The notes beneath the pieces are model-generated. The model did no database searches, was not told where the DNA came from, and saw nothing but the letters and a program-made list of their open reading frames with translations. Source: Chara braunii (lineage: Eukaryota > Plantae > Charophyceae). Taken from it: 56,341 nt of DNA. A program made the position numbers and the translations under genes. Numbering within the stretch: position 1 is the first letter of the stretch; every line of letters begins with the position of its first letter. This document shows positions 19,506 to 47,328 of this stretch, one piece after another. The DNA lies in assembly GCA_003427395.1 (NCBI GenBank), contig BFEA01000018.1, positions 5,015,602-5,071,942 of the forward strand. Direction: 5' to 3'.

Positions 19506-21523
19506 ATGCGAGCACTTTTGCGTGCCCGGAGGCCTCTGGTAATCAGAACGCACTCGGCAGTCGTGTCCGTCGAAAACGGCGGTTAAATTTACGGGGGACC
19601 TCAAAGTCCGCCGGGATCCGAACTTGGCGCTTGCTGGACTGGCCAGGAACCGGTTTGCGCGGGGGACGACGGATATTTGGATGACCGGTGTGGAATTGCA
19701 CAGAAGGAACGCTAGGCTTGGCTGCATGTTCAGGGAGGCCCTGCTGCTGCTCACAAGTGTTTGTTCCAACAGAGCACNCAGAACAGAAATGGTCGTCGCA
19801 GGTGCACCACGTCGGAAATTGGCGCAGCGCGGCCCCCTATAGACCTCCATGGACCCCGATTCTCCTTATCGACAAAGTGAGCACTTGCGGCAATCCAGTC
19901 GCAAATGTTGCCATCCTTGATGACAATGACTGCAAGCACAAAAAATAAAAAAAACACGGCTGGTGGACCCCCGATTAGTATCGCAGACAAGGCGAGCTCG
20001 CAGTCGGGCAATGGCAGGTTCCACAGCCAGGTTCATGGGACCACGTACGGGTGCCAACCACGAAGTCCGCCCGGATCCGAACTTCAGATCGGTTGCCGCG
20101 TTCGACCGGGAGCATTAAACACTTTGTTTTTGCTGGGGTCCCGTTGGTAGGACTTTTTTTTTTTGCGGCAACGCCAACGAAAGAACAGTCATGCAACCAG
20201 GACTCTGAAAAGATCCATGCAAACCGTAAGCGTNNNNNNNNNNNNNNNNNNNNNNNNNNNNNNNNNNNNNNNNAACCAGGACTCTGAAAAGATCCATGCA
20301 AACCGTAAGCGTCTTATTTCAGCGACGCGGTCGAAACAACAATAATCATCCGAGCAGCCCGCGACTTCGCATGCTTCAGATTGCAAGTTCGCCGGGATCC
20401 GAACTTCGTCGCACGCTGAAAACTGGCATGGCGTTATGAACTATCGACCCCACGCCCGAAAGATGGGAACTGTGTCCCGCAAAACGTAGTCATCAGGGCA
20501 ACCTGGGATGGCATTGTGACTGCGAACGCGAAGTCAACAACCACAAAAAAAATGAGAACTTCGAATCCCGGCGAACTACAGCAATCATGCGCTATTTTCG
20601 CACCTGCGCGTGCTCTCCCTGCGGCCGCACAATGGCAACAGATTGCTGCTTTCGCGAGAGCACTGCGCATGATTGTTGTAGTTCGCCGGGATTCGAACTT
20701 CCCATCTCGCCAGGCAACCACATGCCACGCGCCGTTTTTCGTTTAACTGTTGTTGGTTTCGAGCTTGCGGTGACAATGGCGACCCCCCTTGCCCCGATGA
20801 CTGAGACGTTTCCCGGAGGCGGCCGGATTGTTCGTTACTGAACGAGGCCATGTTTTCGTGTCGAGGTTGTCATCACGAAACATGCGGCGCTCACGCCGAA
20901 GAAACGCCATCGTCATTGCAGCGAGCGGCGCAAACGTTCTCCATCGCACGCACGCAACGTGTGCATTCTTCGTTCTGGAGCCCGCGGATGTTGCACGCAC
21001 AGTCCTAGCATTTGTCGTGCGGAATGCGATATCGCATCCCTCACCGCCAGCGCCAGGAGCGCGCGCTCAACATCCATGGCCTCTATGGTGGATCATGTGC
21101 ACGTTGTGTGCGCGGGATGGAGACGACAGCAACTCTCCCGGGATTGACGCCATAGTCTCTTCGGGGAGGGAGGCTCAAGTGCTGCGGCGAGAACACGAAC
21201 ACGGAACGACGACCCCCTCCTGTTTATGAATACCTTACCTCTCACTACACGCCACGTGGACGGCAGACATCCTTCCCACCAAGGCCACCGCGCGACGCTT
21301 AGTACCAACAGCGGTCGCACGCAGCCCATCCGTCTCCTTTGTGATAACCAACCTCTAATCTCTTTGTTGAGAACATCAAACGAGCGACGGAAGTGTTTCG
21401 AAGGGGTTTCGTGTTCCGCTGGGAATAGGCGATTTCGCGTTTGCCTCGACCGCGCGGGAGTGGTTTGCAATGTCCAGCTTGTGATCAACGACAGTTTTTC
21501 TTCAATGCCAAGCCAAACAAGAG

Positions 21524-22477
21524 TTGTGGGGGCGGTCGAGTGGAACGAATGAGAGAGAAGCAGAACGGGACACACAAACCGTGTGCCCCGATGTCCACGT
21601 CATCCGATCCCGCCGTCCCAACCACTTGCGACACGTGGCACGACATGATGATAATGATGACGACGGTGATGAACACGATGATGGTGACGATTACGGTGGT
21701 GATGTTGATCAGGGCGACGATGTCGCTGCCGATGATGACGATGTTGATGACGATGATGATGTCGATGATGATGTTCGTGATGATGATGATTGTGATGACG
21801 ACGATGATGATGATGACGATGATGACGACGATGATGACGATGTTGATGATGGCGATGACAACGAAGAGGACGATGGTCGTGATTTTGATCACGGCGACGA
21901 TGTCGCTGATGATGATGATGTTGTTGATGACGTTGATGATGTTGATGATGATGTCGATGATGATGACGATGTTGATGACGTTGACGAGGTTGATGATGAT
22001 GATGATGTTGATGAAGATGATGATGATCACGATGACAATGATGGTGATGATGATGATGATGATGAAGATGATGACACTGATGGTGGCGGCGACGATGATG
22101 GTGATGATGGGGGCAATGATGATGGTGATGACGACAAGCAAGAATCACGGGGCCGCTCGCGAGGAAAGAACGAGCGGGAATCAGAAGGGGACACATAAAC
22201 CATGTGGCCCAATGTCACCGACATCCTTTCCCTCCGTCCCCACAACTTGGAACAGGTGGCGCGACGCGGCCGCTCCCATGGGCCGGCAAACATGCCTGAC
22301 ACGAGGGCAGGCAGAACAACACTTTACCTTGAAGAGGGCACAACGCACACGATGGCGCTGCTCTTTGACGGCTCACAGTTCTTCGAGCAGGCGCACTTCT
22401 TCGACGACGGCGAAGCGCACACGATGGGGCAACTGTTCGACAAGGGCTCAGCGCAAACGGCGGTGGCCACTTGCTGA
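21524..22477 (+). pseudogene. Highly acidic poly-Asp ORF with an internal duplication and one in-frame TAA
   Basis: ~500 bp of mixed GAT/GAC triplets in phase, flanked by ~100-bp direct repeats encoding similar peptides in the same frame. Confidence 0.45.
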
Positions 22478-23747
22478 CGCAGGACGCGGAGACGAGATGT
22501 CGAAGCGGAGACAACCGAACCACAGACGACAGTTGTCGACGAGAGGAAACCCCTGCGCCCACGCCTGCCGCCGCCTGGCGCAACAGCGGAGTAGAAAAGG
22601 CGATGGAGGATATCGCTGACGGGATGTCGAGCGCGAATGCGCTCGTCAGGCTTGAGATGCGAAAGGGCTGCCCCAGACCCGAGGCAGCTGAGCGTCAGAC
22701 TGTCGTCGCACCCCATGGAAAGACNNNNNNNNNNNNNNNNNNNNNNNNNNNNNNNNNNNNNNNNNNNNNNNNNNNNNNNNNNNNNNNNNNNNNNNNNNNN
22801 NNNNNNNNNNNNNNNNNNNNNNNNNNNNNNNNNNNNNNNNNNNNNNNNNNNNNNNNNNNNNNNNNNNNNNNNNNNNNNNNNNNNNNNNNNNNNNNNNNNN
22901 NNNNNNNNNNNNNNNNNNNNNNNNNNNNNNNNNNNNNNNNNNNNNNNNNNNNNNNNNNNNNNNNCCCGCGGTTCTCCCCCCTCACCCCTGGAAAGTACAA
23001 ACTGCCCCCCGCCGACACCTGAGACCCCCTCCACCGGGGCCCGCAAACCCGAAGACACGAACACGAGGGGCCCGGAACAAGGGCCCGTTTTCCAATGACG
23101 TCTGGGAAGGGCCAGCCCGTAGGGACGTTTTTGTCACATTTCGACGCACCAGGCCCCCCTCGCGACAATTTCGACGTGCAGCCACCGTTCGATGCGCGGA
23201 TCGAACAGCCGCGAGTCGGCGCGTGGACCCTGCACGGAAATCCGAAACGGAAGGCCCGAGGGGGCCTCCTGTCCCGCGCGCCTACAAATACGAGCGGCGC
23301 CCTAGGCATTGACGATGCGTTTTGTGTTTTTTGCTGAGGAGATGCTGCCCGACGGAAGCCACGCACCTCATTGTCGTCAACAGCTGGCGCGCCATAGCTG
23401 GCACAACCATTCTTCACCGCGCACGTTTCGTGGCACCGACGCACCCCACATGCCCTCGCATGTCCCTCCGCCCACCAAGTCGCTGTCCACGTCATATTCG
23501 ACGTCGCTTCCGATCTCCTTTCTCAGAAGGCACGACCGCCACCCCACACAGCACCCCAGCAAACGCGAAGTGCACGCCCAAAGGTGGACAGAGTGTCGTC
23601 ACGACAAATGTCGGGGTTCGCGCTCATCTTCACACGGTGAGTGCGCACGCAGTCGGGATGTATGTTTGCATGTGCGCGCGTGCGGGGGAGGTTTTTTGTG
23701 ACGATATGCTCGCGCAGATCGAAAGATTTCGTGGTTGCATGTGTGCG

Positions 23748-23748
23748 G

Positions 23749-23779
<31 letters not shown>

Positions 23780-23950
23780 TGTGCGATTGTGTGTTTGTGC
23801 ATGCTTCATTGTGTGTGTGTGTGTGTTCGAGTGCGTGTTCCTTTGTGTTTGTGTTTGTATTGAAGTGTGTGCCACACGCGCGAGGCAGGATCGTGCGCGT
23901 GTCTGTACCTGAGGGGCGTGTGTGTGCGGGCGCCGTGTGTCGGCGCGCGC

Positions 23951-24012
<62 letters not shown>
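23748..24012. repeat. (GT)n microsatellite region
   Basis: Directly visible. Confidence 0.95.
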
Positions 24013-24014
<2 letters not shown>

Positions 24015-25195
24015 CTGTTTGTGCATATGTGTTCGCATGCATGTGTGTTCGCGCGCGTTTTCCACGGGGAGATGCGCGCGAACATGCGCGGTCAGGGATG
24101 AACGTCATGGTAACGAAACACAACGTCATCGTGAGCACTTGCCATACCAGATTGGTTGTGTGCTGTCCCAATGTCATGTCCACCGATCTGCCCTATGGAT
24201 GATCAATCGAAACACGCGGTGGCAATGTCGACATAGCGAACGCATCCATCGACCAATCGCGAAACACGATGAGATCACTCGCGATCGGATGATTGGTCGT
24301 GTCTGCCGTGTCGACGTTACCACCGCGTGTGTGTTGTTCTTTCTGTCGTGTGTGTTCAGATCACTCGTGATCTGATGGTCGATCAGATCGATGACAATAT
24401 GTACACCACACACGTGATGAACCGACCCATCACGAAATGCAAGCCGACCACTTGCGATCGGGTGATAGATGCTGTTTGCTTCCCCAACAATAGCGCCGCT
24501 GATCTGCCCGACGGATGATTAACCAATGCATGAGGCGACAACGCATCCAACCGACCAATCGCGAAACGACAGAAGATTACTTGAGATCGGATGATTGATC
24601 GTGTGTGCTGCACCGAACATCAACCCGTCGGCGAGCGACCTATTTATTTACCCACCTGACAGTCCTCGACCGAACCGTCGATCGGTCAGGAAATCTGCCA
24701 TGATCAACTGATTGGTCGACAACTCGGTTGGCGATTGCTCTGTTGGTTGATCAACCACCACACCAACCGCCAACCGAGCAGTCGATCAACCAATCGACTG
24801 TTCTGTGCTAATTGATCGTGGAGAACGATCGTGGAGAATCCTCAAGGCAAATGATCATGTGCACGATCGAAACCGGCGAACGAAACGCACAACCGATCGG
24901 AAAAACGTCGATCCCGATCTTCGAACGAATAAAAAGCACTTCGTCACAATCTTGTTGCACATCGAACCTCGTATAACATCGAACCATGCTGCCCATGGAA
25001 CCTGGCTCCACATCAAACCTCGGCGGGCGTCGAACCTCGTCGGACGTCGAACTTTGGAGGACGTAGGGTCGTCGACACTTGACGGTCACTGAACGGCGAA
25101 CGTTGAGCACCCACCATCCCACGTGTCGTCGACACTGTTCTCGTTATCGGAACATGGCCGTTCCAACCGAACTGATCGCGCAATCAAACACCGGA

Positions 25196-25720
25196 AGAAG
25201 TTGGGATCTCGGCGAGCTTGTGCAGTTGTTCGAACACGCTTCTCAACCCCGGTGCGCAACCACAGCCAGGGACGTGGAAAATTAGAAGTCCGCCGGGATC
25301 CGAACTTCAAGAAATTGCTGGACGGCGAGTTTGGCAGACACGTGTGCATCTCCCATGCAATTTCGCCAAGTTCGGATCCCGGCGAACTTCATGCAGCTGT
25401 TCGAACACGCTTCGCAACCCCGGTCCCCAACCACAGCCTGGGACGTGCAAAAATTGGAAGTCCGTCGGGATCCGAACTTGAAGAAATTGTTGGACGACGA
25501 GTGTATGTCTCCTACACAATTTCGCCAAGTCCGGATCCCGACGAACTTCATGCAGCTGCTCGAACACGCTTCGCAACCCCGGTCCGCAACCACAGCCTAG
25601 GACGTGGAAAAATATGAAGTCCGCCGGGATCCGAACTTCAAGAAATTGCAGGACGGCGAGTTTGGTAGACAGGTGTGTATCTCCCACGTAATTTCGCCAA
25701 GTTCGGATCCCGGCCAACAA
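25196..25720. repeat. Tandem array of ~3 units of 160-170 bp, each with two oppositely oriented 22-bp palindromic motifs
   Basis: CGAACACGCTTC..AACCCCGGT..CAACCACAGCC..GGACGTG repeated at ~25231, ~25402 and ~25561. Confidence 0.9.
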
Positions 25721-26958
25721 ACCTCGCTCGCACTATTCCTTGCACACTCGCCGAGTCCGGACCTCGGCGAACCTCGGATCCGTAATAATGCGAAGTCCGC
25801 CGGGATCCGGACTTCTACTGCACGGTTCCTCGCACAGACATCAAGTTCGCACCCCGACGACTTCGCTTGTCTCAATATGCGGGTTCATAACGCGGGTTTC
25901 TAGCTCCCGAGGTTTGGCATAACTTTGTATTTGAAAAAATGTGTAGCCCGCCGGTTGATTCTCTCCCACGCGGTCTCGAGAAGTTCGGATCCCGGCGAAC
26001 ACCCTCCCGTGGATCCGGACCTCGCGTGGCAAGTTCGGACCCCGACGAACTTCGCGTTGCGCATGGTGTGGGTACTGATTGTGTCCTTTCTCGCGAACAG
26101 GTGTGTGCCACAACTTTTGTTTCGCAAAAATGCAAAGTCCGCCGGGGTCCGTACTTCTCGTGCAAAGGTTCCTCGTCCCATCGTCGGGTTCGCGTGCTGG
26201 GCCGTGGATCCGAACCAGCTGTCTTCTTTTCGCAATGCATGTGGCAGGAGATGTTCCTTTCGCAAGTTCGGATCCCGGCGAATTTGCCAAGTTCGGATCC
26301 CAACGAATTTGAGTTGTCTTCCGTTCGCAATGCATGTGGCAGGAGATGTTCCTGCTGGGCCGTGGATCAGAACCTGCCGTGCACAGTTCCTCAGACAATC
26401 GTAAATTTCGGATCACGGCGGACTACGGATTCTATAAAATGCAAAGTCCGCTGAGATCCGGACTTCCCGTGCACGGTTCGTCGGAAAACCGTCGACTTCG
26501 GACCCCGGCGTGCTTCACCTTTCGGGTGGTGCGGGTTCTGACTGCGGACTTCCTGGCGACCGGTGGATTGCCACAACTTTTTATTCGTACGAAATTGAAA
26601 TCCGCCTGGATCCGAACTTCTTGGCAGTTTTGGACGTCGGGTTTGGGAGACAAATTCGTCTTTCCCTCGCAGTCTCGCCAAGTTCGGATCCAGGCGAACA
26701 TGTCGCAGGGCGTGTTTGCGGCTGGCCCGCGGGCGGGTAGACGTCAACACCGACGAAGCTGGCCACCCAAAATCTGATCTTGGGGCATACACTGCGTCTA
26801 ATGCCATGGGTCGCTCATCGTGAGACATGACGCGTTTACGAGTGTCTCCATGCCCGTGTGTGTCGTCGGGCATGTGCGCGTGGTGTGCAGGTTGCGTGAT
26901 GGAGGGGACCTTCTCGACACCACGCATCTTCGAGTCGATCTTATCGAGACCATAGGCC

Positions 26959-27906
26959 ATGAGTGCCGAGACGCGCATTCGCTTGGCAGAACCTTTTCGT
27001 CCTTGTGCGAAATCCGTGCGGCATTTCAACGGTGTGACAACGATCCACGGAGCGACCGCAGAGGACTTCGACGAGGACCCATGGATGACCGTCGTCCCGT
27101 GCATGGACGCGCATGTTGACAACTGGGGCGAGGGCAATTGGGACAATATGGAGACTCACTGCCCTTGGGCAAGCCAGTACAAGTTCGCGAATATGTCGGA
27201 GTTCGGGGACCTCATCCCACTGCCTGACGCCGTCCTCGGACATAAGTTCCTGAACCATATGCGGAAAGCACTAAGCTGCATTAGCCGCTATTTCAGTCGC
27301 CTCGAGTGCCACAACGTCAGGTCATCGCCACAAACTTGGGGTGGCTCACGGAAACAAGAGTTGGTGGACTGCGCTCGTCGCTGCTCGTTCCTGGACCAGT
27401 ACCCGCTCCGTGGCCCCGGAATTTCTCCACGAGCTGTGTCGTACTGCTGTGTGCGGTTGACTGTGTCCGGATCTGATTTCGCCAGAGTTCTGTGTGTCGC
27501 TGCTTCAAACAAGAGCAGGAAACTCGTCGACGCAGTTGTGCTCGTGTCGCGCAACGAGGTTGTGATTGAAGGGTCCAAATTCGTGCCGATGCGTGGGCCT
27601 GAACGTGTGGATGGGTGGCCAGATTTGGTGATAGCAGGTCAGGTTCGAAACTATTCGTTGTTTCGTGAGGTTGAGGAGAAAGTGGCTGACATACAGGACT
27701 GCATAGGAAACTCCTTAGTAGGACCGGGGGTGTTTGTTAGGATGAAATACATGTCCGTTTTTTCGGATAGTGCATCGGTCAATGAACCGCAGACCCGCGT
27801 ATACGGATCGTCACTGAATGCTTTGTTTGGCTTCGGTTCACGACGTCGTCCCGGGGGATCCCCAAATGTCGCCACATCCGAACCGGTCTTTAGTCCTTCT
27901 GTTTGA
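26959..27906 (+). CDS. Transposon cargo orphan protein B (315 aa; paralog of 13384-14295)
   Basis: Intact ATG-initiated ORF with colinear similarity to protein A over ~260 aa. Confidence 0.82.
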   Translation: MSAETRIRLAEPFRPCAKSVRHFNGVTTIHGATAEDFDEDPWMTVVPCMDAHVDNWGEGNWDNMETHCPWASQYKFANMSEFGDLIPLPDAVLGHKFLNHMRKALSCISRYFSRLECHNVRSSPQTWGGSRKQELVDCARRCSFLDQYPLRGPGISPRAVSYCCVRLTVSGSDFARVLCVAASNKSRKLVDAVVLVSRNEVVIEGSKFVPMRGPERVDGWPDLVIAGQVRNYSLFREVEEKVADIQDCIGNSLVGPGVFVRMKYMSVFSDSASVNEPQTRVYGSSLNALFGFGSRRRPGGSPNVATSEPVFSPSV

Positions 27907-29225
27907 GGGAAAAGAACGACGAGGGACGAGATGCGGTTGTGTTGCCTAACATGTGAGATTTGTAGGACTGCAGAGAAGTGTGAGACTCCGCGGTTGCTGG
28001 TACACGCTGCACCGCGCGCTTGTCGTGCAAATCCCTGGTCGTCGTTCGGTTCAGTGACATGACAAAAGTCATGTTGGACGTCCGTCTCTGACGCCGTCTC
28101 CTGCCATTTCGTGCCCCGACGAAGTTCGGATCTCGGCAAACTTCGCATTCTGGCCTCTCCGTTAATTTGTCTCTGATGTCATTGGCGTCGGGCGGGCCGC
28201 GGGAAAGACCCCTCACCGCGGAAGGATCTGCCCGTAACCTGTTTTCGCCCGTCCACCATCAACGTGTGCCAAATTGTCAGTCACTGTCGTAGCGAGATGC
28301 CAAAAGCACTCTTAGAGATCCCCGTCGCAAGGTCGCGCGAGCTTCGCGTTTCCTGAAACCCGTTGGAGATCCTGGTTGGCGGGCCCTCTTGTTGGAAATC
28401 CTGTTGGCACCGTGCTAGGACACCGTGCTAGGACCCCAACTTTCTGTCTGTCTCTCTCGCAGCCTCCTGAAGTTCGGATCCCGGCGAACTTCCTGTGACG
28501 CCTGTGTATTGAACGGGCGCTGGGCTTGATGATCCCCCGTGGATTGCGGCACGAGTCAAACCGTGATCCACAACTGCTCCTCCAGGGACTCATACAATGT
28601 TGTCACGGCTGCTCGTTCGAACTTGGCTTCATCCAATGCCAAGTTGCGCATATCAGAAGAAGTTCGGATTTCGGCGAACTTGTCCTTCTCAAGCGGCCTT
28701 TTGTGTTAGTGCGGCCTTTCCGGGTCGTGGTTCAGTCCAATCTGTGTTTGCCTGACGCCGTCTCTGCCTATTGCATTTTCCTGAAGTTCGGATCCCGGCG
28801 AACTTCACGTTTCGGTGGGTGCGTTGGTTTGGCTTCGGACAGGCACTTTTAGTACGGATCTCGGCGAACTTCGCGTCATGAACTGTCCGGGTTAATATTG
28901 CTAAACAAAGGACACTGCCCCGTCCAACGTGGGCTTTGTGCGTCACCACCCGTCCATTCCCGATCCGGTGGCCATCCGTGTTCCGGAAAAAACCGACGTG
29001 GTTGTCGCCCGACTGCATGAAGCGTATGCCCTTGTAAAGAATGATCTCGTTGCAGGTAAGAGGTCATTGCTGGTCTTCGCGTTAGAAGTTCGCGGGATCC
29101 GAACTTCGAGGTCCTCGGATAGCGTCATGTGACCGACGTGTTGAGGGCAAGGTGTGCCTCCTCTGTTTTTGGCATGCGTTGTGCTTTGACTGCGATTTGA
29201 TCGCTGGTGTTTTATTTGTTTTCCG

Positions 29226-32200
29226 TTGTCGTCCGCAGACAATATGTCTTCGTCCAGGGGCGAAGGGGAGCCTGCAGCGACCTCCGGGATGGGATCTGGG
29301 AAAAATTCTACAAAACGGCCGTCTACGACCTCGAGGACGTGGTCCGACCACGCTAGGTCGAAATGGTTCGTCGACTGGTGCTGTGCTGATGCTACGAACC
29401 CAGTCCAACAGCCGTGTGGTTCTGTGATCTTCGTCGAAGCCAACAAGCGCCGCAGGGTTCTGGGGGCTGTCTTGCGGTGGGAGAATGCGAAAGGCAGTCG
29501 TCGACGGTTTTACATGAAAAATGTGTACGGTTCGAAGGGGAACGCCGTAGCCGGTGCCAAGGGGGCAGTTCTCGACATGTGTCTGTTCGAGGGGTTCGGA
29601 GCGGGTGCTGCAAACACCCCGTTCTACAACGACCTCCGGCAGCAGGGCGGGTTTGTTTTGGGTCGACAGTTCTTCGACCTGTTGGAGGACAAGGGCATTG
29701 CCCTCGATGTCCCTTGTGAAGTCGGTCCCGACCTGGAACTGTCAATGCCTTTGCAGCCGTGCGGCGGTTGTGAGTCGAGCGGGGCAGCGGGGGAGGGGGG
29801 GGATCTGGGTTCCGGGGAGGCTACACATGTGCAGCGGGAGGATGCCAGAGGTCAGTTTGACGACAAAGAAGATGAGGCGATACCGCGTCCGCCGTTTTCG
29901 CCGTCGAGGGAAAGAGACAGGTCCGTGCTGTCCATACCTGGGGTCCGGCAACAGACCGCAGCGGATCCCGGAGAAGAGGGAGTCCTGTGTGGGTCTGACT
30001 TGGAGCCCGCCGAGGGCCATGGCGCGGAAGGCGAGGCCGTGGGCGGGGAGGAAGTGCGGGGCACTCCCCAAAAAAGGAAGGGACAATGTCAAGAAGAGTT
30101 GGTGGGATCTTCGAAGAAACAGAAGACCAAGACCCCGAGGACTGTGGGAGAGAAACGGAAGGGGAGGGGGGTGGAAGAGGGCCACCCGGATAGCAAACCT
30201 CCAGCTTCGAAACATAAACAGCCTGAGTCGGGACCTTCTTCACCGCGGCCTGCCATCGACGTGGACGCCGGGTACGTCATGGAGTACAAAGACGGCGTCA
30301 GGACAAGGTGGGAGTTTGAGATCAGCCCGGCTCAGATCGTTGACATGAGGGAGTGGGAGGATCTTTACAACCAGCGGTCGCTAGATCCTGTCCTCGTGGA
30401 AACGATAAGGGAAGCAATGCGGTCTGCGTTCGAAAATAAAGAACAGACGTACGAGTTGCCGGTCTTCAAGCTCGCACCACTGGGGCTTCAAAAACCAACT
30501 CCTGGGACCAAGGCACAACGTCTGAAGCCAGAGGAGTGGAAGGATGAGCTGGTGGGAGAATACTTCTACTACGCGGTGTGCGGGCAGCACAACGCGGCTG
30601 CAGCTAGGTCGCTGCTCGGCAGCGAGGTGGCCAAGAAGTACAATTTCGAGCGGTGGCCGGCACGGATGGTGTACTTTTCCGACGATGACTTCGAAGGGTA
30701 TTTTCTNNNNNNNNNNNNNNNNNNNNNNNNNNNNNNNNNNNNNNNNNNNNNNNNNNNNNNNNNNNNNNNNNNNNNNNNNNNNNNNNNNNNNNNNNNNNNN
30801 NNNNNNNNNNNNNNNNNNNNNNNNNNNNNNNNNNNNNNNNNNNNNNNNNNNNNNNNNNNNNNNNNNNNNNNTTCTATGAAAGACATTCGATGGCAGTGGA
30901 AGCATGACGGCTGCCCGAGAGCTGTGATGGGGAACCCTAGCGGAAAACAAGATCAGGTCCGGGCTTGGCGTAAGTTTTGTACAATGGCGCTCTGTAAGGC
31001 GCCTCAAAACAGCTTGTGGCTTCTCGCGGATCAAAAGGAAGAGGAGGCCATTAAGAAGCAAAATGCTGCCCTGCGTTCTAACTTACCTCTGGCGATGGCC
31101 GGGGAAAATGTCTGAAAACTGGCCGTGGAATTTTTCGAAAAATGGGAGACGGGCAGATTGCTGAGCCACAATGGGGCGAAGTGGACCGTCAAAAAGAAGA
31201 AGGTCAAAAACGTAATGCCTGGGGTCGCCTACATCCACAACGACAAATTGGGCAGAACGGAGGTGGTGTACAACGTCCCCGTGGACCCGCCGAATAAAAA
31301 GGGCAAAAAGGAGAAAGAGGAGGGCGATTGGTTCGTGCAAGTGCCAGACCCGGATGCGCATTGTTGAAAAGCAATGGAATCACTCACGGACAATGAGAAG
31401 TGTCGCGTTCTGAAAAAGGTTCTTGCTTGCGAGGTCGTTTGGGTCCAAGCCGGCTCCCCGTCGTTGGGGAAGTTGGAAAAGCTCAGCGTGCAGGACATGG
31501 TTCAGCTGGTGAAGTGTGACCGCGTGCTGGTCCGGTTGTGGAATTACTACCAATTCAAGCACGAGAAGAGGCCGGACGCGGACTGGATCCAAAGGTACCC
31601 TTTCCTGAAATCGAGGTCTGCCGTGTTCAAGAAGTTTGAAGGTCAGGGATTGGATGACGAGTTATGGGATAACAGCAGGAAACACGTTTCCGACTCGGCG
31701 TTGTTCAAGGACTGCCCGCCATACAAGGGTTGCAACTAGGACAACTCGATTGAGGTGACAAAGAAGTTGGCGGGCCACAAGAAGTTGTCCGTCGACTGAA
31801 GAAACAAGGTTCTCTCCGTGTTGAATGGAAGCAGACTGAAGAGCCGGGAAGTAGCACTTGCCGAAGGCATCGTTCACATTAAATGGAAAGACGCGGGGAA
31901 CGTGACATCCATCGCGCCGTTCGCCAACGACCCTTTAGAGGCGGACATCAGGGGCGCAGAGCTGAAGGAGGCAGTGACTGCCACAAAGAGCCACACGTTT
32001 GTCCTCGATCTGTGCGAGCCGGTTGACCTCAAACTGTGGAAGCCCCAAGCGTGGGAGACTTTGAATTCCTATCTTCAGACGTGGTGTCCCTCGCATTGGA
32101 CTCTCGTTGTTTTCGTGCCGCGGCAGCACAACCTGTCGTTTCTCGCCAGCATGCATCATCTTTCTTTCGTCAAGCTGTTGGAAGGGAAGTGGGTGCGGAG

Positions 32201-34460
32201 AGTGCAGCAAAAAAAAAGCTTCCCCGTTGGGAACAATTTGTACACGGAGGAAGACCGCATGTACATCCTCTTCAAGGGTGACGATCTGCGCGTCAACACG
32301 TCCGTGGTCTACGAGGGAAACCTGCCCACGGGTGCCGCTGCTGCGGTGCGATTGCCTCAGAGGGTCACCCAAACGGATGTGTCCGAGATTCCTTTAATGC
32401 CTTGCGACTGGTCGCTGGTGGCGCCTGAACGACAGGGCAACGTCTACGGGGATATGGATCGCAATCCGACCCAATTCGTCGGTCTTCTTGATTTTCTTGG
32501 CAAGAAGGGAGAGGGTGTCGTGTTCCTTGGGAAACCGCACGCGCGAAGCGTCTGGGAGCTTCTGAAGGCCGGTCGGCTTGTTGTCGCAATGGAAGGGAAC
32601 TCCGACCTCTTGCAATTCACAATGCAGGTGGTGAAAAGCGAGGTCAATTCGAGTGGGCACAATTATGAGTTCATGGTCGTGAGGCCAACACGGGATAAGG
32701 TGTGAAGCAAGAAGACGGATATGTGGTTCAAGTTGAGCGAGAGGAAGAGGAACAAGATATACGATTTCTTGTTCCTTCAAACGCGTCCGAGGAGGGACAC
32801 TGACGCCGAGTACATCCGCCGGAAGGACCACATGTTGGCACCCCTCGACAACTACCACTTCGCCTCCCGCATGAACGCGAAGACGTTTATCGAAAGGCTG
32901 CGGTCGCTGTACTTCGTGGAGTCCGAGGAGCAGTTGAAGTTAGCCAGTTACGCTTCCCTGATCTCCACTGACGACGAGGAAGCCATAGGTGTGGAGTTTG
33001 TCGCCAACGCGAAGGAGGAGGAAAGCGACACGGAGAGCATCAACCTGTAGTACGACCCGCCTCCGGCGGACCACGGCCGAGGGTCCTCGTCGGCCGGTCC
33101 ATCACCAAGCGCTGCAGCCCTCGTGTCACCATTGGCCAAACCGGCGTCGGGCACCACCCCGATGAAGTTGCTGGAGAGACTTAGAGCTCTGGCCGCCCCC
33201 CCACCCGCTTTGCGTCCCGGGTCCGTTGTCCCGCCTGATCATCCATCTTGGAAGGATGACAACATCCACTTCCTACTTGAACCGCAACGTCATTCACCTG
33301 AGCAGGACTGGGGCCATGACATGGTTTGGCATCCGGGAATCATCCAGCCAGCGATACGAAATGGCGAGTGGGTCATGGGCGTGGCAATCCCGGGCGCGGG
33401 ATGGGTGTCATTCCCACGCGAGTCGAAGTCCAACTTCCTGCACCTCGCGAGGATTTCTGTCCTCCAGAAAGTGAAGGTCGAAAATGACACTTTAGCACCC
33501 AGCGACCTGCCCCTCATTTTCACTGCCGGTCGACTGTTTGACGAGCTTCAGGACAAGTGCTGGTTGGAATTGACGGAGGACTACTACGAGCTCGACACGA
33601 GTCCGTCGAAGGGCGTGGTGGACTGGAAAGCGCCCCCTCCCAGTGGGCCGGACGGTGGTTCCGGGGGGGGGTCACCTGGAAGCAGAGGGGATGGGGGTCG
33701 CGACGCAGGGGGTGGCAAAGGAATCCCGCCTATGGGGGAGAGAGGGTCTCACGGCCGCAACACAACACCGGGAGGCAGCGCCGGGGTAGCGGGTTTCGCC
33801 GTCGACCGGACTCCGTCAACAGGCACCCGGCCCGAGCACACGACACACTCCGCCGACCCCCAGACTTCGTCCGTGGGCTCAGCGAGGGACACGTTGGCAG
33901 CCTTGGTTGCTCTGGGCAGTCGCTCGGCCAGAAAGCCGAAGTCCGCCAGGATCCGAACTACGTTGGGTGAGGAGCCGCCAGAGCGGTCCGGAATGCGAAG
34001 CTGCTTTGGGTCGGGGGATCCAAGCACGAATCGAGAAATTCGCAGCATTGCGGCGCGGGACTGAGACGTCGGAACGGTGTCGCCTGAGCGGGAGCGACGG
34101 CCGCAAGGATTGCAGCGGGAGGCTGCAAGTGCAAGGTCCGGCGACACGGAGACCACGAAGTCCGCCGAGATCCAAACTTCTTCGGGCGGGGTTTGTCGGC
34201 CAGGGATTGTCGTGCCGTTGAGAGGGGCAGCGTGCACGGGGACGGAAGGGCGGTCCTCGCGATTCGACACGGGTACCGCGGAAGGGGACGAGTTTCGTGG
34301 GAGGGAAGTAGGGGAGGAAATGGAGGAACAGAAGGGAGCGCAAGAAGGGGAGGAAGAAGGGGAAAAAGAGGTGGAAGGGGAGGAAGCGGGAGAAACTGAG
34401 TTAATTGATTTGTTTGAAGGAAGGGAGGGTGCCTGGAGAAGACGAAGTGGAACACAGTGA
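29226..34460 (+). pseudogene. Large cargo gene: ParB/Srx-like domain plus degenerate beta-class amino-methyltransferase-like domain
   Basis: ORFs starting at 29226, 31125, 31374, 31818, 32721, 33123 and 34077 share one frame, separated only by 7 point stops (N gap at 30707-30871). ParB-like ISPAQI..NQRSLD..VETIREAM..YAVCGQHNAAAAR; MTase-like motif order at ~31990-32630. Confidence 0.75.
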
Positions 34461-35250
34461 GGACGATGCCGGATCTGGAGAGTCGTCTGACGAGTTCGGA
34501 CAACTGTACGAAGAGCATCACGAGGATGATGTCGACGACGATGCCACGACAATAGAGATGGAGACACAAGTGGTCAACAACCTTTCCGCAGAGCCTGAAG
34601 GCCATTGACGTCTGCTGTCGACTTGCAGCACCGGTTCGACGAGGCTTCCGTCGATATCAGCCCGTCTGAAAAAAGTCGACGTATAAGCATCGACGAAGTT
34701 ATCGACGGTATCCTCGGCGACCACAACATGTCTGCCCGTCTGTCCGCAACTGCCAACGTCCCATCTTCCGTGGCAGCTGCCCTCGCTTCGTCGCCGCCGA
34801 AGTCTCTGGTGCTGCAGGCCACCCTTGCCGCCGAAGTCTCTGGTGCTGCAGGCCACCCTTGCCGCCGAAGGGGAAGGCGAGTGCGATGGAGGACAACATG
34901 TGACGTCCCCAAAAAAATCGAGGTTCGGCGGTCAGGCTCTTGACGTGCTCGCTTTGCCTGCGCCAAATTCACCATCGAAGAAGCGGAGAGAGAAACAGAC
35001 TGGTAAGCCGTGAAGAACGCCTGCGCATCCGGATGTCGCCAGATTACAGTCCGCACTATACAAACGACGACTTTCCACACTGTCTGTGCATACGGGAAGT
35101 TCCGGATGCCGGCATGCTACAGCCAGCAGCCCTTCCTACTCCAACTCGTCGGCCTATCTGTGACTCGGTCGGGTTGCTAGTCGAGGGCGGCGAAAACTTC
35201 GTCCAAAACCTTACACTCCATCCAAGGAAGGATTTGCCCCGGCTGAGGAA

Positions 35251-35930
35251 GTGGCCAAGGTGCTAAGAAAGTGACCAAGTACATGGACTGACAGTTTTCC
35301 CTTCTCGGGAATACTGTCGATTTTAGTCCGCCGGGATCTGAACTTCCTTTGTCGATGCGTGATGTGGTCAGTCTCAGTGGGGCTGGTGTGTTGAAAAGTC
35401 CGCCGCAGTCCAAACTTCGGGGATTGCTGGCCTCCGGCTTCTGTGAGTTGTGGTGGTTTTCCTTTGCGAAGTGCGGGGGTTGATAAGCTCGAATGTTGCA
35501 GTCGTTTTGTTTTCCAGTCGCACAACCGCACATGGGTGCACATGACCACGCGAGATCAGGGTCCTGTGGTTGGAGAGGTCCTACTTCACTGTAGGCCAAG
35601 GTGCTAAGAAAGTGGCCAAGCACATGGACTGACAGTTTTCCCTTCTCGGGAATAGTGCCGGATCTTAGTCCGCTGGGATCCGAACTTCCTTTGTCGATGC
35701 GTGATGTGGTCAGTCTCAGTGGGGCTGGTGTGTTCAAAAGTCCTCCGCAGTCCGAACTTCGCGGATTGCTGGCCTCCAGCTTCTGTGAGGTTTGGTGGTT
35801 TTCCTTTGCGAAGTAAGCGGGGTGATAAGCTCGGATGTTGCAGTCATTTTGTTTTCCAGTCGCACAACCGCACCTAGGTGCACATGACCACGCGAGATCA
35901 GGGTCCTTGGGTCGGAGAGGTCCTGCTTGA
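35251..35930. repeat. ~340-bp tandem duplication, two palindromic motifs per unit
   Basis: GGCCAAGGTGCTAAGAAAGTG.CCAAG.ACATGGACTGACAG at ~35253 and ~35594. Confidence 0.9.
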
Positions 35931-36284
35931 CTGTTGCGTCTGTACGAATGTATGGTTCTCATTTTTCGTTTTGTCTTTCTTCTGTTGCACATGGTTGGTG
36001 TCGTCTCGAACACGGAGGTCCTCCAAATATCCAGAGCACATATTGCAGAAAGTCCCCGGGTTGAGTAAAAAACACAAGGATATGTTAAAGGCATCAGGGG
36101 TTGATGTCGAGATCGGGAAGAAGGAGTACACCGTTGCCATTGAGGAATGTCTTTCCCTTCTTGCCCCAGAGAAAGGGACATATCCACGATCTGTGAGTAG
36201 GGGTCAGGCCATGTATGAGAAGTACTTAGCAACGCGTCATGCACCGGGGGACTATGTCTAGAACTCCGTTTCTCACTACCCCAC

Positions 36285-37067
36285 GTGTCCTTTGCTCGAT
36301 GTTGTGCAGTGCGGGCAACAAGTGCAGCACGCGGGAAAAGTTTCGCTTTGACGATTACGCCTATGAGCTTGCGGGTTTTGGATGACATTGTACGAGGCTC
36401 GGTGCCGTCTAACACTATTCTCTCTATACTGGACGATGGTCAATTTCGGATTGTAGCAAAAGATCTCCTCACCCTCTTGCATGTCAACGACAGGGTGAAT
36501 GATGAGGTGGTCAATTTCTATATGGCGTTTTTGGGGTCGACCGCATGTGGGTCACGTGACTTCTCTTCAGACCTTCAAGTCTTCAGCTTTAATTTGTTCT
36601 TCTTCAGTAAACTGTGACTTCAAGGACACGGTGGGGTGCAGAGGTGGGCTACAAACGTAGATTTGTTTCGTTACGATATTATCTTCGTTCCTGTCCACAA
36701 AGATGATGATCACTGGATCCTCGTTTTCGTCAACATGAGAGATGATGTTCTCGAAACTTTTGATTCTTTTCCTCGCATTGTAGCTGATTCTAGTTTTTAC
36801 CTTAGTGTTTTCGGGTTGATTGTGCAGTATTTGGAACGTCTAACATCACGTAGGCGGTCGGGTAGGAATTGGAAGTTCATGGTGGGAAATGTTGTGGTGG
36901 ATGGAGTTCCGAGACAAGTGGATGGAACAAGCTATGGTGTGTTCATGCTGATGTATGCGACGTTGTTGCAACATGGAGATCGACCGCCTTTTCGGTTCTC
37001 TTGTAAAAATATTCCGCTTCTTAGACGACAATTAGCATCATGTGTCTTAGAACATCGTTGTCTTTGA
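36285..37067 (+). pseudogene. Ulp1/SENP-like C48 cysteine protease, inactivated
   Basis: NDEVVNFYM, FN.FFFSKL, DLF.YDIIFVPVH, HWIL, TFDS and PRQ.DG.SYGVF motifs; in-frame TGA at 36615; the catalytic Cys position reads Tyr. Confidence 0.9.
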
Positions 37068-37649
37068 TGGATTTGATTGACTTCGAAACTTTTTTTTAAG
37101 GTGTTTCATTCATTGATCGTTAAATTTCGTAAATTGAGACATTATTTAATTGCCCTTCTGCCAGAGGCATTGCTTTCTTTTATCGTTCCGAGTTCGCATT
37201 ATCTACGGTAAGCTCAATGCATGTCCTGCGTCATGTATGGGCTTTGTAATCTATGTCACGTAATGTTTCATGTTCTGAATTCTGTTCAAGTTGAAGTATT
37301 GTGTTCCATGTTTCGAATTCTGTTCAACTGGAAGTGTAAACATGATTGTGAAATTGGTTGGTGGATGAATGAGAAATCTCATCTTATGTGAAATTGGTTA
37401 GTGGATGCCCAAACCTTCTTTGCATGACCATTTAAAATGCGGATATTCATCGTGATGGAGCACAATTTAATCTAATTCAATCTAATTACATTGCTAATTT
37501 TGTTTACAAAAGTTCAACAACTATGGATGTCAGCAAACTTTTGCGTTTGGGGCGACTGAACGGGCATGCCCATGTACAAACACTGCAGTCAAAAATGAAT
37601 TCGTAAGAAAGAGGACAGTGTCACAATATAGTTACTGTATCTTTCATCA

Positions 37650-37964: not shown

Positions 37965-37990
37965 TATAATGTCCTATTTTAACGAATAAC
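37965..37990 (-). repeat. Right TIR
   Basis: TATAATGTCCTATTTTAACGAATAAC, reverse complement of the left TIR with one mismatch. Confidence 0.95.
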
Positions 37991-39449
37991 GTATTTTGGG
38001 TGGTGCGGGCAGACAGACTCCGTGTTGAGATGACTGTATGCCCTGCATTTAAAGCACCACGGACGAAATTTACGTGAAGTGTGGATCTGAAAGACTCGCC
38101 CTCCCATTCGATAGGGGACGATGTCATCAATGGAGAAAGGCTGGTCTTTGGGCAAGTCTAGAGCCAGCATCAGATAGTCGTCGCGCTTCGCCACGAAGGA
38201 GGGAAGTGGGTCGATGAAGTCGACAATGTTACACTGTTGACCAAAGTCGTAGACGAAGGCCGCCTGGATTTCCACCGGGATATGTCTCAATTCAACCCAG
38301 AAGTGGTCCCTCATCAATTGCTCCCGCTTCTCCTCCGGACTCACCTTTTTGGGTTGCCAGGGATATATTCTCACTTCCGAGCGTTCCCATTTGATCGACC
38401 TCCTTCCTTCCATCTTCTTTTTGTCTTGGGGGAAGAGGCTGAGGACGGTGAACACGGTTGAGGAGAGCGGTTGAATCAGGAAGAATTCCTGAACCGCCTC
38501 AGGGTTGCCTTTCATCTCCTCTAGCCTTTTGTGTATCCATCTGAGTTTGTCGTTCACAAATCTGTGTGCTATATCGCCGAGAAAGAGCTAATTGCTGGCA
38601 TGCCGGCGATAGGTGATGTCCCTGTCATCGATTTTGTCAGGGGGGTATGTTTTCATCATTGTCTTTCTCCCCCCTTGATCCACCACTTGGTTTTGGGAAG
38701 GGAAGGAAGAGGGTCAAGAAGTATGCCCTCGCCGACGAAAGGTTACGGAGGGGAACTTTCAGCGTCTCGTCTTTGCCCTGTTGTAAGTCTGGGGCGGTGC
38801 GCTGGATATCAAGAAACTTTTCTTGAATGGTTGTTCTGACGCGTTGGGCCCATGTGGGCTTAGTGCCCTCGTCTTTGCCAGGGTGGTCGACACCGGTAAT
38901 TAGCTTTCGCTGCCTTTTTTCCTGGGTCAGTTCCTCTTCCGTTAACATCTCTTCATCTGCTACCTCCTTGTCATCTTCCTCCTCTTCCTCATCTTCGCTT
39001 CCACTGTCGTCCTCCATTTTCTCTTCCATGTCCCCCCCTCCACCCCCCCCTGTCAGTGCCGTATTGCTTTTCTCGTGAGGAGCCCCTCCGCCCCCCCTTG
39101 TCAGTGTCGTATGGCTCTTCTCGTGAGTAGCCCCCCCCTGAATGAGGGAGGAATGGGTCAGCGGAATGACCTGTTCAATCGGAGACGGATTCGGCTCTGA
39201 CTGGGTGGTCAACGGAACCACTTGCCCTTTAAAGGCTTCAGATGGGTTCGGCCATCGGTTCGGATCTAGGGGGTGCAAGTCCAAGCGCNCGNCCGNCCTG
39301 GGGAGAGTTCCTCCAGGCTTCGGCCTGCCGTACGGAGACACTGCCAGCCGTCTGGTGGGGTCGTGTCTCCCTGCCCCCCTGTAGAAGATAAGGGGGTGTA
39401 ACGCTCTCCGGCCCTTAAGGTCTTGGTCAACCGAGCGTTCCATAGTCAT
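37991..39449 (-). pseudogene. LINE ORF1, 5' half (DUF4283-like region plus zinc knuckle), frameshifted
   Basis: FWVELRHIP motif and CFKCRAYSH..C knuckle typical of plant L1 ORF1; ends at the right TIR. Confidence 0.82.
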
Positions 39450-39499
39450 CAGGCGTCCGAATTCCGGCGATATTGTGTGGTGGATTCCTCGAAGTTGTA

Positions 39500-39690
39500 T
39501 GTGTTTGATTGATTCCCCGTAGTGTGTTGTGTGTTAACTCTTTATTGATCGTTTGATGTGTGATTCAAGTGCGATTAATTGCTCTGATTGATATATTGGG
39601 CACCCCGTGGGGTGTTGTGTGGTTACTCTTTTATTGATCGTTTGGTGTGTGATACAAGTGCGATCAGTTACTCTGCTTGATATACTGGGC
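39500..39690. repeat. Short direct duplication in the presumed LINE 5'UTR
   Basis: ACTCTTTTATTGATCGTTTG.TGTGTGAT.CAAGTGCGAT occurs twice. Confidence 0.7.
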
Positions 39691-40799
39691 TCATTCTCTC
39701 TTTTTTTGGATGGATATTCGAGGGTGATTGTTTCTGGCTTGGAGATATGCAAGGGAGGAGGATGAGAGGGGAGCGGAGGGGGGGGTTGAGCGGTCGAGAG
39801 CGATGTACTGTCGATTTGCCGGCTGGTGCTTGCTGTTTCCGCAATACGCGTCCGTTCTTCTGAAGCTGCCAGCGTTTCTGTCACCGTATGCTCCCAGTAA
39901 GTCGTTCTCCCGACCTCGTGACCCCGGTGAGATGCCCTAGTTTTCCTTGACCCGCTCGGAGGGTATCTCGTAGCTTCGCCCTATCCACGCAGTGCCTACC
40001 GCATGGCTGTTTCTCCTCGATCCGCTGTCTCCTTGTTCAGCAATCGGCCGCCTCCCGCGACTATTGCAAGGTTCGCCCCGGTCTCCTGCCTCCTGTCCCG
40101 ACCGTTCTCCAAGCCGGTTGGCGATACCGCCCGCTTCTTGCTTACGAACTCCTTCCGTGATCCGCACGCTGTGTTTGTCGCACACTTCGGTCTCACCATA
40201 GGCATACTCCACTGCGTCTCCGTCTAGAACAGCACTAAGAGCCACGTGTCAGCAACGTGGCGACTGCGGAGCTCCACGTGGGACCCCCGTACAGGGGGGT
40301 CGGGTCGCAGTCCACGTCAACCCATGACGCGGTGTGACCCAGCGCCGAGGTACGTCCGCGCGTGCGCTAACCGCGTAATATAACACCCGCAACTTTTTTT
40401 TTTTTTTTTTTTTTTACCCGACGTACCCGCAACTTTGGCTAAGGTGAACCCGGTCCGGTGGTTGAAGCTTGCTGTATCAATTTACAGGCTGCACCATAAT
40501 GCATGCTGGACGTAGGAGCTGCGATGTTCGCTGTCAGTTTTGATTCTTCCCTATGAAAGTGGATCAGCGGAGAGGAAAGAGAGCGAGTAGGGGAAAGAGA
40601 GTGGCAAAACAAGAGTGGAAACACTCAACACCAGTCTGAAGGCATATTAGTACTCACACGGGGACCTTTTTTACTTATTCTTGGATGTAATTGCGGCCAG
40701 ATTCATGCAGGTCTGGCCGTAAAAGTGGTCAGATGCATTAAACGTAGTGCTAGTGTGAGCATGCCCTGTCAGTGACTGGAGGGAGTCATAGGACTGTAA

Positions 40800-43329: not shown

Positions 43330-43546
43330 TTAACCGCCACTACTTGGCCCAGCTATTGATGTCGAGCCGGGATACCCCCTGCGCGCCAAGTTTTGCCGAG
43401 CCGTCGGGGCCGCACCGTTTCGTTTTGATTTTGGCTGGTGCTTCCAGCCATAATGATTGCGGTTCGGTGCCCCGAAGCCCACAGCTACCGGCGCGTTAAC
43501 GGGAATCGCCTGTGGCCGATAGCTGGGCCAAGTACTGGTCGTTTAA
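43330..43546. mobile_element. TTAA-bounded MITE
   Basis: TIR TTAA.CG.CA.TACTTGGCCCAGCTAT at both ends. Confidence 0.75.
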
Positions 43547-43559
43547 GAAGGATTGAGCC

Positions 43560-47102: not shown

Positions 47103-47133
<31 letters not shown>

Positions 47134-47328
47134 TAGTAAGGCTTACTAGCCTGTACCNCACAAAATCAAAGANNAACCAATCAGGTTAATAGGCCCAAAA
47201 AAAAAAAAAAAAAAAAAAAAAGAGGTTAGGCCCAAACAATGCTACTGCATAACTGTGCAGTTTGCAAAACGAATTACACCCACAGAGCCACACAAACAAA
47301 CCGGATGAAAGGATAATCTGGACGACCC
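46031..47328. mobile_element. Non-autonomous element with long (>100 bp) imperfect TIRs and nested short insertions
   Basis: 46031-46140 is an imperfect reverse complement of 47221-47328. Confidence 0.65.
46774..46970 (+). mobile_element. tRNA-derived SINE
   Basis: A box TAGCTCAGTGG (46786), B box GTTCGAATCC (46840), poly(A), and 13-bp TSD AAAACCCAAGAAC (46761-46773 and 46971-46983). Confidence 0.85.

Follow-up and report, generated by a model that had tools for sequence, protein, structure and literature searches.

The window analysed here is a 56,341-nucleotide stretch of contig BFEA01000018.1 from the charophyte alga Chara braunii, and it contains a DNA transposon of 25,687 bp (12309-37995) that carries a domain predicted to have a methyltransferase (MTase) fold. 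The element is bounded by terminal inverted repeats (TIRs) of 31 bp at 12309-12339 (+ strand) and 37965-37995 (- strand), which match at 28 of 31 positions, and by a TTGG target-site duplication (TSD) at 12305-12308 and 37996-37999 (both +). In a shuffle control, the TIRs gave 25 matches out of 26, whereas none of 60 shuffles exceeded 20. The element sits in the ORF1 of a LINE, which the TTGG duplication leaves in frame, and only 12309/37995 shows a 4-bp duplication among the 12 boundaries tested. An alternative with ends at 12314/37990 and a mutated duplication of 2 bp was set aside; ends at 12308/37996, with a 2-bp duplication, also keep the frame but introduce an extra TIR mismatch and conflict with read ends at 12309. 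Reads from other copies, small in number, include five whose loose ends before 12309 are mixed, as well as three in which right-end interior sequence stands behind the left TIR. The element is a multicopy, cut-and-paste DNA transposon whose copies share these ends at other sites. At 85% likeness, positions 28400-37300 attracted 244 reads in X3, 34 in X4 and 10 in X2, together with 10 contigs in X1; X2 and X4 have almost no reads on the element region. Since the X3 reads lie on both strands and also cover non-coding and terminal DNA, they do not show a transcript.

Several other genes reside within the element. An open ORF of 800 codons (14764-17166, -) contains DUF7869 (E 1.4e-55), a domain of unknown function, with acidic motifs near residues 302, 388 and 430. 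A sequence search of the PDB with this ORF returned no match; we infer that it encodes a DDD/E transposase, and its motifs and the 4-bp TSD are reminiscent of Sola-like DDD transposons. Two further ORFs, X1 (13384-14337, -) and X2 (26956-27906, +), are paralogs with 45% identity. A Ulp1/Peptidase_C48 SUMO-protease domain (PF02902; 36219-37067, +) scored above the cut-off (HMM E 2.5e-16). In the window copy it has a stop at 36615 and a Tyr at the position of the catalytic Cys (36933-36935), which is present in all four paralogs that match the local pattern. Finally, a 21-bp quasi-palindromic motif with a GGATCC core is dispersed in both orientations over 17890-35687, in 34 copies with at most four mismatches; its 18-bp core occurs 35 times inside the element versus 0 times in the 30.7 kb outside.

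The MTase-fold domain is part of a large, apparently intronless cargo gene (29190-34853, +; 3′ end approximate), laid out as a low-complexity N-terminus, a ParB-like domain, a linker of ~300 residues, the MTase fold and a helical C-terminal region. A first-pass annotation of the window had described the MTase-like and ParB-like domains as in frame with one another. They do share a reading frame, but in the window copy four stops (31113, 31365, 31737 and 31797) and a 165-N assembly gap (30707-30871) lie between them, and two more stops (32703 and 33048) follow the MTase-like part. Paralogs have Trp, Asp or Gln at the six stop positions. The proposed fusion is real in relatives, and the metagenome protein P0100 encodes both domains in one fully open ORF of 1419 aa. 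The window copy is a pseudogene of a gene whose two parts form a single ORF in its relatives. Gene model CBR_g19814 bypasses the stops and the gap with introns that are probably annotation artefacts, because paralogs align straight through them; reads over the cargo region, at low depth, list no splice joints. Both the pseudogene state of this copy and its status as cargo of a bounded 25.7-kb transposon had been missed in the first-pass annotation.

The DGQHR/ParB-like domain (30366-30706, +) has a QR pair at 30366-30386 and GQHN at 30579-30593, and it runs into the assembly gap. The DGQHR/ParB-Srx signature comprises a QR pair and a downstream FxxxN-like motif (PMC4619093). Among 55 matching proteins, QR was found in 30, HR in 9 and, by a loose pattern, the downstream Asn in 34. 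The invariant DGQHR pentapeptide is absent, xGQH being followed by N, T, S or K and never by Arg (0/55), a degeneration that runs parallel to that of the MTase motif. By language-model features, DUF3723 clusters are the nearest neighbours of the ParB-like part of P0100 (0.97; 198/256 shared), a likeness that serves as a lead only, since Pfam gave no DUF3723 match at E 0.05.

The MTase-fold domain itself spans 31860-32678 (+), or residues 21-293 of the stop-to-stop ORF 31800-32705. The six stretches in which a degenerate beta-class N4C/N6A MTase had originally been recognized (31995-32021, 32082-32117, 32166-32198, 32250-32279, 32460-32531 and 32562-32600) all share this one stop-free frame, and structure prediction bears the recognition out. 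With a 46-sequence alignment as input, AlphaFold2 modelled the domain at a mean pLDDT of 80.6 and a pTM of 0.81; a single-sequence fold (pLDDT 41.8) was discarded. The top Foldseek matches of the model are beta-class amino-methyltransferases, led by M.BceJIV (E 4.8e-9) and followed by M1.HpyAVI, CcrM and M.RsrI. When the model was compared with 48,161 chains by VIA-align, all of the top 20 rows (Z from 16.7 down to 9.7) were MTases, either beta-class/type III Mod or of the MT-A70 family; the first unrelated fold, in row 21, reached a Z of only 5.8. The matches include CcrM (Z 16.7, with 218 residues aligned at an rmsd of 3.5), M.BceJIV (16.3), M.RsrI (15.4), M.PvuII (15.3) and rotifer N4CMT (15.1), as well as MT-A70-family chains, inactive partners among them (9.7-13.1). 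The permuted order suggested earlier, with the catalytic motif ahead of the SAM-binding motif, is likewise upheld by collinear Foldseek alignments of ~250-280 columns and by two profile alignments, both of which place motifs X-I-II at the C-terminus.

The fold is invisible to standard profile collections. Pfam and NCBIfam profiles, PF01555 included, gave no match at E 1; the sole PHROGs match was to one family of unknown function (E 0.055); and neither the ORF nor alignment A1 retrieved an MTase in sequence searches of the PDB. A profile-profile test against MTases was weak but positive (P 0.006), its score of 26.6 exceeding both that of the reversed alignment (15.0) and the highest of 60 block shuffles (22.8); an earlier run against only 11 untrimmed MTases (P 0.03) was too weak by itself. 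A homodimer-plus-SAM prediction for the domain, run without an alignment, scored 0.45, 0.01 and 0.01 and carries no weight in either direction. From the model, the domain is predicted to have the beta-class N6A/N4C DNA methyltransferase fold (class I Rossmann, beta type), with a modelled resemblance to beta-class MTases that exceeds chance.

Approximately 150 related proteins were found, and every named one is from Chara, except for the one metagenome protein. Three repeat proteins (P0131, P0133 and P0139; of PPR, HEAT/LRV and low-complexity types) were removed before counting. The genomic context examined is that of the copy in the window, so that placement of the distant subfamilies in the same kind of element is presumptive; among 156 related gene models, 12 match Ulp1, 14 match ORF X and none matches the transposase. 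Locus searches, which reach close relatives only, found none in metagenomes with P0100 and P0001, and no sequence relative in viral contigs or prokaryote genomes.

The motif-IV-position strand and loop is assigned by an inferred register to 31995-32021 (+), where the Asp is kept and both prolines and the aromatic residue are absent. The original placement of this motif at TFVLDLCEP is supported by one profile alignment, which sets DPPY on LDLCEP, and by the model, in which a strand ends at Asp70 (the structural comparisons were reported as ranges and not residue by residue); the second profile alignment places it ~25 residues earlier. In this register, position 1 is Asp/Asn in 90 of 93 rows (Asp alone in 87), Pro occurs at positions 2 and 3 in 0/93 and an aromatic residue at position 4 in 1/93, counts that, like those that follow, overstate independence because near-identical recent copies and decayed gene models make up many of the rows. 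When [DNS]PP[YFW] was sought in 184 aligned rows from 151 proteins, it was absent from all of them. The target base is described as being positioned, in both N4CMT and CcrM, by the carbonyl of the first Pro together with the Tyr of motif IV (PMC10406627). On the SAM-binding side (motifs X, I and II; 32460-32600, +), the window copy still has one Gly of motif I and the acidic residue of motif II. That Gly is retained in 106/119 rows and the acid, at the SAM ribose position, in 110/115, as are an Arg/Lys (99/119) and a His/Gln (117/119) at further catalytic/SAM-side positions. The second motif I Gly is found in 4/120 rows, and the full FxGxG is confined to a subfamily of four (P0107, P0135, P0136 and P0146) that also lacks Pro-Pro at motif IV; it is absent from the window copy. 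The first-pass annotation was thus right that the residues are non-canonical and overstated their degeneracy, and the paralog alignment that it proposed in order to look for DPPY and FxGxG recovers only the latter. Conservation extends well beyond close copies. In 24 non-redundant domains, down to ~20% identity, W131 is present in 24 and D70, R133, D152, Y216 and G244 in 23 each, and core residues persist among subfamilies that are 20-40% identical, of which at least seven are well supported.

Because (D/S)PP(Y/F) is missing family-wide, the MTase-fold domain is likely to be catalytically dead, as judged from sequence, and because W131, D70, R133, D152, Y216 and G244 are kept to ~20% identity, the fold appears to be under selection. 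We lean, with slightly better than even confidence, towards a family-wide pseudo-methyltransferase that is a candidate DNA-binding accessory of the transposon. An ancestral element would have captured a prokaryote- or virus-type ParB/DGQHR-plus-methyltransferase module, and key residues would then have been lost from both active sites with the folds still under selection. The intact protein may bind the element’s own 21-bp motif through recognition loops of the MTase fold, possibly still holding SAM, and could thereby bring its other domains to the element, perhaps together with the Ulp1 deSUMOylase. The outcome would be that transposition is aided or host silencing resisted. The tie between the domain and the motif is one of co-location, and binding could instead be the task of the transposase or of ORFs X1/X2. 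A precedent is provided by the inactive N6A-MTase domains of DIRS1 retrotransposons, as outlined in PMC4738411.

It is also conceivable, if on the whole unlikely, that intact members have a remodelled catalytic loop and still work as amino-methyltransferases, depositing 4mC/6mA along the element (at the GGATCC-containing motif, for instance) in order to mark it or block 5mC silencing. The kept Asp/Asn, Gly, acid, Arg/Lys and His/Gln could amount to a working active site, and four proteins have a full FxGxG. Permuted clades of eukaryotes whose strand-4 motifs are unusual have been described by Iyer et al. (PMC4738411), and in Marchantia 4mC is described on CGs except in 5mC-covered TEs (bioRxiv 2021.02.12.428880). 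Such activity is hard to reconcile with motif IV, where no subfamily has Pro-Pro and an aromatic is nearly absent, with the rarity of the second motif I Gly, and with the missing Arg of the fused ParB-like motif. Slightly less likely is a complete transposon-encoded toolkit, in which a new-loop beta-class MTase writing 4mC/6mA on the GGATCC-containing array, a Starship-like ParB clamp and a deSUMOylase would shield giant (~26 kb) charophyte DNA elements from host 5mC silencing.

There is a small chance that the domain is an inactive scaffold in the manner of METTL14 or the DIRS1 MTase, binding RNA or proteins (such as the transposase, an active methyltransferase of the host or the transcript of the element) and not a DNA sequence. 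The structural matches to MT-A70-family chains, including inactive partners, would fit this, as would the RNA or RNAPII contacts proposed for inactive TE-borne MTases in PMC4738411. However, the best structural matches (Z 15-17) are enzymes that act on DNA, the fusion partner is a DNA-associated domain of DGQHR/ParB-like type, and copies of a private motif are densely arrayed along the element. A functionless relic, passively amplified with the transposon, is very improbable: the window copy and many gene models are broken, and the reads show no transcript in X3 and are almost lacking in X2 and X4, but core residues persist across the subfamilies, the alignment gives a confident fold and P0100 is fully open.

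In predicted fold and permuted order, the domain resembles CcrM (6PBD), M.BceJIV (8URK), M.RsrI (1EG2), M.PvuII (1BOO) and M.MboIIA (1G60), with Z of 15.3-16.7 over 213-231 residues. It shares with beta-class MTases W-x-R/K, an acidic residue at the motif VIII position, a single Gly of motif I and the acid of motif II; unlike them (8-16% identity), it lacks (D/S)PP(Y/F), nearly always FxGxG and any PF01555 match, and it sits within a eukaryotic transposon protein of >1400 aa. N4CMT of bdelloid rotifers (PMC8885841, PMC10406627) and MpDN4MT1 of Marchantia (bioRxiv 2021.02.12.428880) are described as further beta-class folds in eukaryotes, with a presumed source in prokaryotes or viruses. Both are active enzymes with SPPY, encoded by host genes of low copy number, whereas the Chara domain is high-copy transposon cargo without it, and a shared acquisition is unsupported, since no sequence similarity between them was detected. 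The DIRS1 MTase is likewise presented in PMC4738411 as transposon-borne and kept though likely inactive, but as a group-2, PCIF1-derived domain of a retrotransposon polyprotein, as opposed to a permuted group-1 fold with a ParB-like fusion in a TIR/TSD DNA transposon. The same source describes phage and prophage ParB-methyltransferase loci and fusions in which the ParB-like part is also N-terminal to an amino-MTase fold, and a phage protein labelled ParB/Sulfiredoxin (BFVD A0A6J5MMM5, E 4.2e-6) is among the viral fold matches; the Chara protein differs in its long linker and in the degeneration of both motifs. The DUF3723 proteins of fungal Starships (bioRxiv 2021.12.13.472469), like the ParB-like part, are conserved cargo of giant eukaryotic elements. 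Starships use tyrosine recombinases, whereas the Chara element has TIRs, a 4-bp TSD and a DUF7869 ORF.

The anti-silencing MULEs of Arabidopsis include VANDAL elements, with their VANC proteins, and the Ulp1-carrying Kaonashi elements. The logic of a cargo protein, a private short-motif array and Ulp1 may be seen as recalling these elements, although VANC proteins are not known to have an MTase fold.

Bacterial-type beta-class amino-methyltransferases in eukaryotes have been reported mainly as domesticated host genes. In Chara, such a predicted fold has been amplified in ~150 annotated gene models, in an algal lineage adjoining the land plants, and as cargo of a cleanly bounded transposon. With its TIRs, TSD and DUF7869 ORF, the element also offers a worked example for assigning DUF7869. 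Should the pseudo-enzyme reader prove correct, it would add a new type to the accessory proteins of transposons, and the private 21-bp motif is its obvious candidate target. Should any subfamily be active, the transposon would instead encode a 4mC/6mA writer whose active site is non-canonical, and such enzymes might reach plant genomes by this path.

The methyltransferase-fold domain (31860..32678, +) lies in a 301-aa ORF running from stop to stop (31800-32705, +); 96% of the ORF's length aligns at 100% identity to CBR_g19814, a Chara braunii gene model. All six stretches quoted in the first-pass annotation occur in it (31995-32600), and the ORF was unmatched in family libraries (Pfam, NCBIfam, PHROGs) and a PDB sequence search. 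An AlphaFold2 model built on a 46-sequence alignment (pLDDT 80.6, pTM 0.81) was matched by Foldseek in the PDB to M.BceJIV first (E 4.8e-9), then to M1.HpyAVI, CcrM, and M.RsrI. With VIA-align, run against 48,161 chains, CcrM scored Z 16.7 (rmsd 3.5, 218 aligned), followed by M.BceJIV (16.3), M.RsrI (15.4), M.PvuII and M.MboIIA (15.3 each), and N4CMT (15.1); the next ranks held type III Mod and MT-A70-family chains to Z 9.7, after which the next value was 5.8. The top viral fold matches were N4/N6 methylases of phages and pandoravirus. The beta-class fold claimed earlier is thus borne out by the predicted model, including against M.PvuII, M.RsrI, and M.MboIIA, the three enzymes proposed for comparison, and as a prediction it is strong. 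Comparing profiles with 15 beta-class methyltransferases gave a weak signal (P 0.006), with a score of 26.6 versus 15.0 for the reversed alignment and at most 22.8 in all 60 block shuffles, and it reproduced the original placement of motifs X, I, and II. The motif IV register first proposed was recovered in one profile run but not in the 15-enzyme run; model strand 66-70 terminates at Asp70, which favours that register.

Whether paralogs keep DPPY or FxGxG had been posed as a check. When 156 fetched proteins were aligned to the domain profile, 151 yielded 184 rows. In the inferred register, the catalytic motif IV begins with Asp or Asn in 90/93 rows, has Pro in 0/93 at each of its two proline positions, and has an aromatic residue at the aromatic position in just one of 93. 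For motif I, the first Gly is present in 106/119 rows and the second in 4/120, the latter confined to one subfamily (P0107, P0135, P0136, P0146). The motif II acid is kept in 110/115 rows, the motif VII Trp in 96/96, and the motif VIII acid in 100/103, and core residues are retained in 23-24 of 24 non-redundant domains. According to work on N4CMT and CcrM (PMC10406627), the target amine is bonded by the first residue of motif IV and the carbonyl of its first Pro, the Tyr is modelled as stacking on the base to be methylated, and ribose is bound by the Asp of motif II. Given these roles, the base-activating loop is gone in the whole family; judging by the alignments, the SAM side is retained in part, and methyltransferase activity has likely been lost.

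Three homolog searches returned 6, 77, and 63 proteins (overlapping sets), every one named Chara braunii. Searching 1.84 billion representatives without filtering gave 102 matches at E 0.001, of which 30 previously unnamed ones were looked up: 29 were from Chara braunii and one was P0100, a JGI/IMG metagenome protein from a 7.7-kb contig. Three matches of that search were discarded as unrelated repeat proteins. Family identity ranges from 90% down to about 20%, and a tree of the 24 non-redundant domains resolves the family into seven or more well-supported subfamilies, among which P0100 forms a long branch. The ESM Atlas places three clusters at 0.94-0.95 to the ORF, none of which comes with recorded taxa or a common Pfam family. 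A cluster in which 39% of members carry PF01555, and whose most frequent phylum is Myxococcota, lies at 0.86 and is a lead only. Kin outside Chara may therefore exist, out of reach of the homolog searches. The region C-terminal to the fold (32795-33626), which has no family match, is conserved in 98 of the 156 related proteins.

The domain forms part of a cargo gene (29190..34853, +, with an approximate 3' end) that also encodes a ParB/DGQHR-like domain (30366-30706, +; residues 85-345 of P0100), recognized by motif pattern and Atlas likeness. Its signature comprises a QR pair, GQH followed by N, T, S, or K (Arg in 0/55 matching proteins), and a downstream Asn, echoing the three motifs of the ParB/Srx-fold DGQHR domain (PMC4619093). 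The nearest Atlas clusters to this part of P0100 are fungal DUF3723 (0.97), a conserved Starship gene (bioRxiv 2021.12.13.472469), hinting that ParB-like cargo is common to unrelated giant transposons. P0100 and a second relative, P0017, each align to the window in one frame (30258 to 33065 and 30282 to 34853, respectively), so the native cargo gene is a long fusion, apparently without introns, and the present copy is a pseudogene. The stops in the methyltransferase-fold frame fall at 31113, 31365, 31737, 31797, 32703, and 33048, where 17 paralogs have mostly Trp at four sites and Asp or Gln at two; all five reads over 31799 carry G. The two domains had been described as in frame, which holds here only in the sense of a shared reading frame, with stops and a 165-N gap within the ParB-like domain intervening; in relatives they belong to a single ORF.

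The cargo gene sits in a DNA transposon of 25,687 bp (12309-37995) with 31-bp TIRs and TTGG on either side. Window self-comparison revealed the inverted pair 12314-12339/37965-37990, matching at 25/26 positions where 60 shuffles reached 20 at most, and both sites show a GC step; among 12 symmetric boundary pairs, only 12309-37995 showed a 4-bp duplication. Read data agree independently: in five reads derived from other copies the match breaks off before 12309 and the flanks are mixed (agreement 0.65), and three pass from the TIR to interior sequence of the right end. The element splits a minus-strand LINE in ORF1 (7002-12308 and 37996-39980; zinc knuckle, endonuclease, RT), with a zinc-knuckle-like stretch directly to its right and RT and endonuclease matches farther left, and the TTGG duplication preserves the ORF1 frame. 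Contigs from three sequencing runs (X1, X5, X6; depth 24-40) match 12338-12757, just inward of the left TIR, and then diverge into unrelated sequence; they may represent a host transcript that took in an element end. A separate family of dispersed 60-100-bp repeats, in both orientations, occurs outside the element (2835-3625 and 43513-53238).

Within the element, an open 800-codon ORF (14764-17166, -) matches DUF7869 (E 1.4e-55) and presumably resembles Sola transposases. As the sole transposase candidate in a TIR- and TSD-bounded element, it would encode the transposase, which suggests this assignment for DUF7869. It is wholly open despite the broken cargo gene. At its 3' end, the N gap 14576-14730 lies between near-identical 81-bp repeats (14495-14575 and 14731-14811), which probably reflect an assembly overlap. 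Two open paralogous ORFs of ~316 aa, 45% identical and without family match, lie one per arm (13384-14337, -; 26956-27906, +). A Ulp1 domain (E 2.5e-16) has Tyr at the catalytic Cys position in this copy and Cys in 4/4 pattern-matching paralogs; it is joined to the cargo protein in some gene models, and the reading frame changes between the two here. Finally, a 21-bp motif occurs 35 times within the element versus 0 in 30.7 kb outside. Its core, GGATCC, is also the site recognized by M.BamHI, a 4mC-forming enzyme, which may be coincidence. Tandem arrays and internal duplications of 170-340 bp (21619-22214, 23719-24077, 25198-25718, 35253-35934) are also present, several holding the motif.

We lean, with considerable reserve, toward an element that captured a ParB-plus-methyltransferase module of prokaryotic or viral type, both of whose catalytic signatures were then lost, and that would have kept it as a putative DNA-binding accessory aimed at its own 21-bp motif array, aiding transposition or resisting silencing. 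The kept Asp, Gly, and acid, the subfamily with FxGxG, a link to the 21-bp motif by co-location, and a genomic context from one copy count against the accessory. Beside those residues, and with the motif IV loop gone, an active non-canonical writer, an enzyme of a new type, is unlikely yet deserves real weight. An RNA or protein scaffold is improbable. A relic would fit the broken state of this copy but not the core conserved across the family, and is the least credible reading.

A full-text literature search, covering few subscription papers and neither the Chara genome paper nor Repbase, returned no title or abstract on this family or element and no paper naming DUF7869; the element or its proteins might already appear in the Chara genome paper, Repbase, or the supplements of Iyer et al. 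or the Marchantia work. Iyer et al. (PMC4738411) describe three permuted eukaryotic clades, none as transposon-borne in charophytes. Background was drawn from that paper, bioRxiv 2021.02.12.428880, PMC8885841, PMC10406627, bioRxiv 2021.12.13.472469, PMC4619093, PMC5751038, PMC4455052, and PMC12344493. The transposon-borne, likely inactive amino-methyltransferase is a known kind, here represented by a predicted beta-class member carried in a giant DNA transposon.
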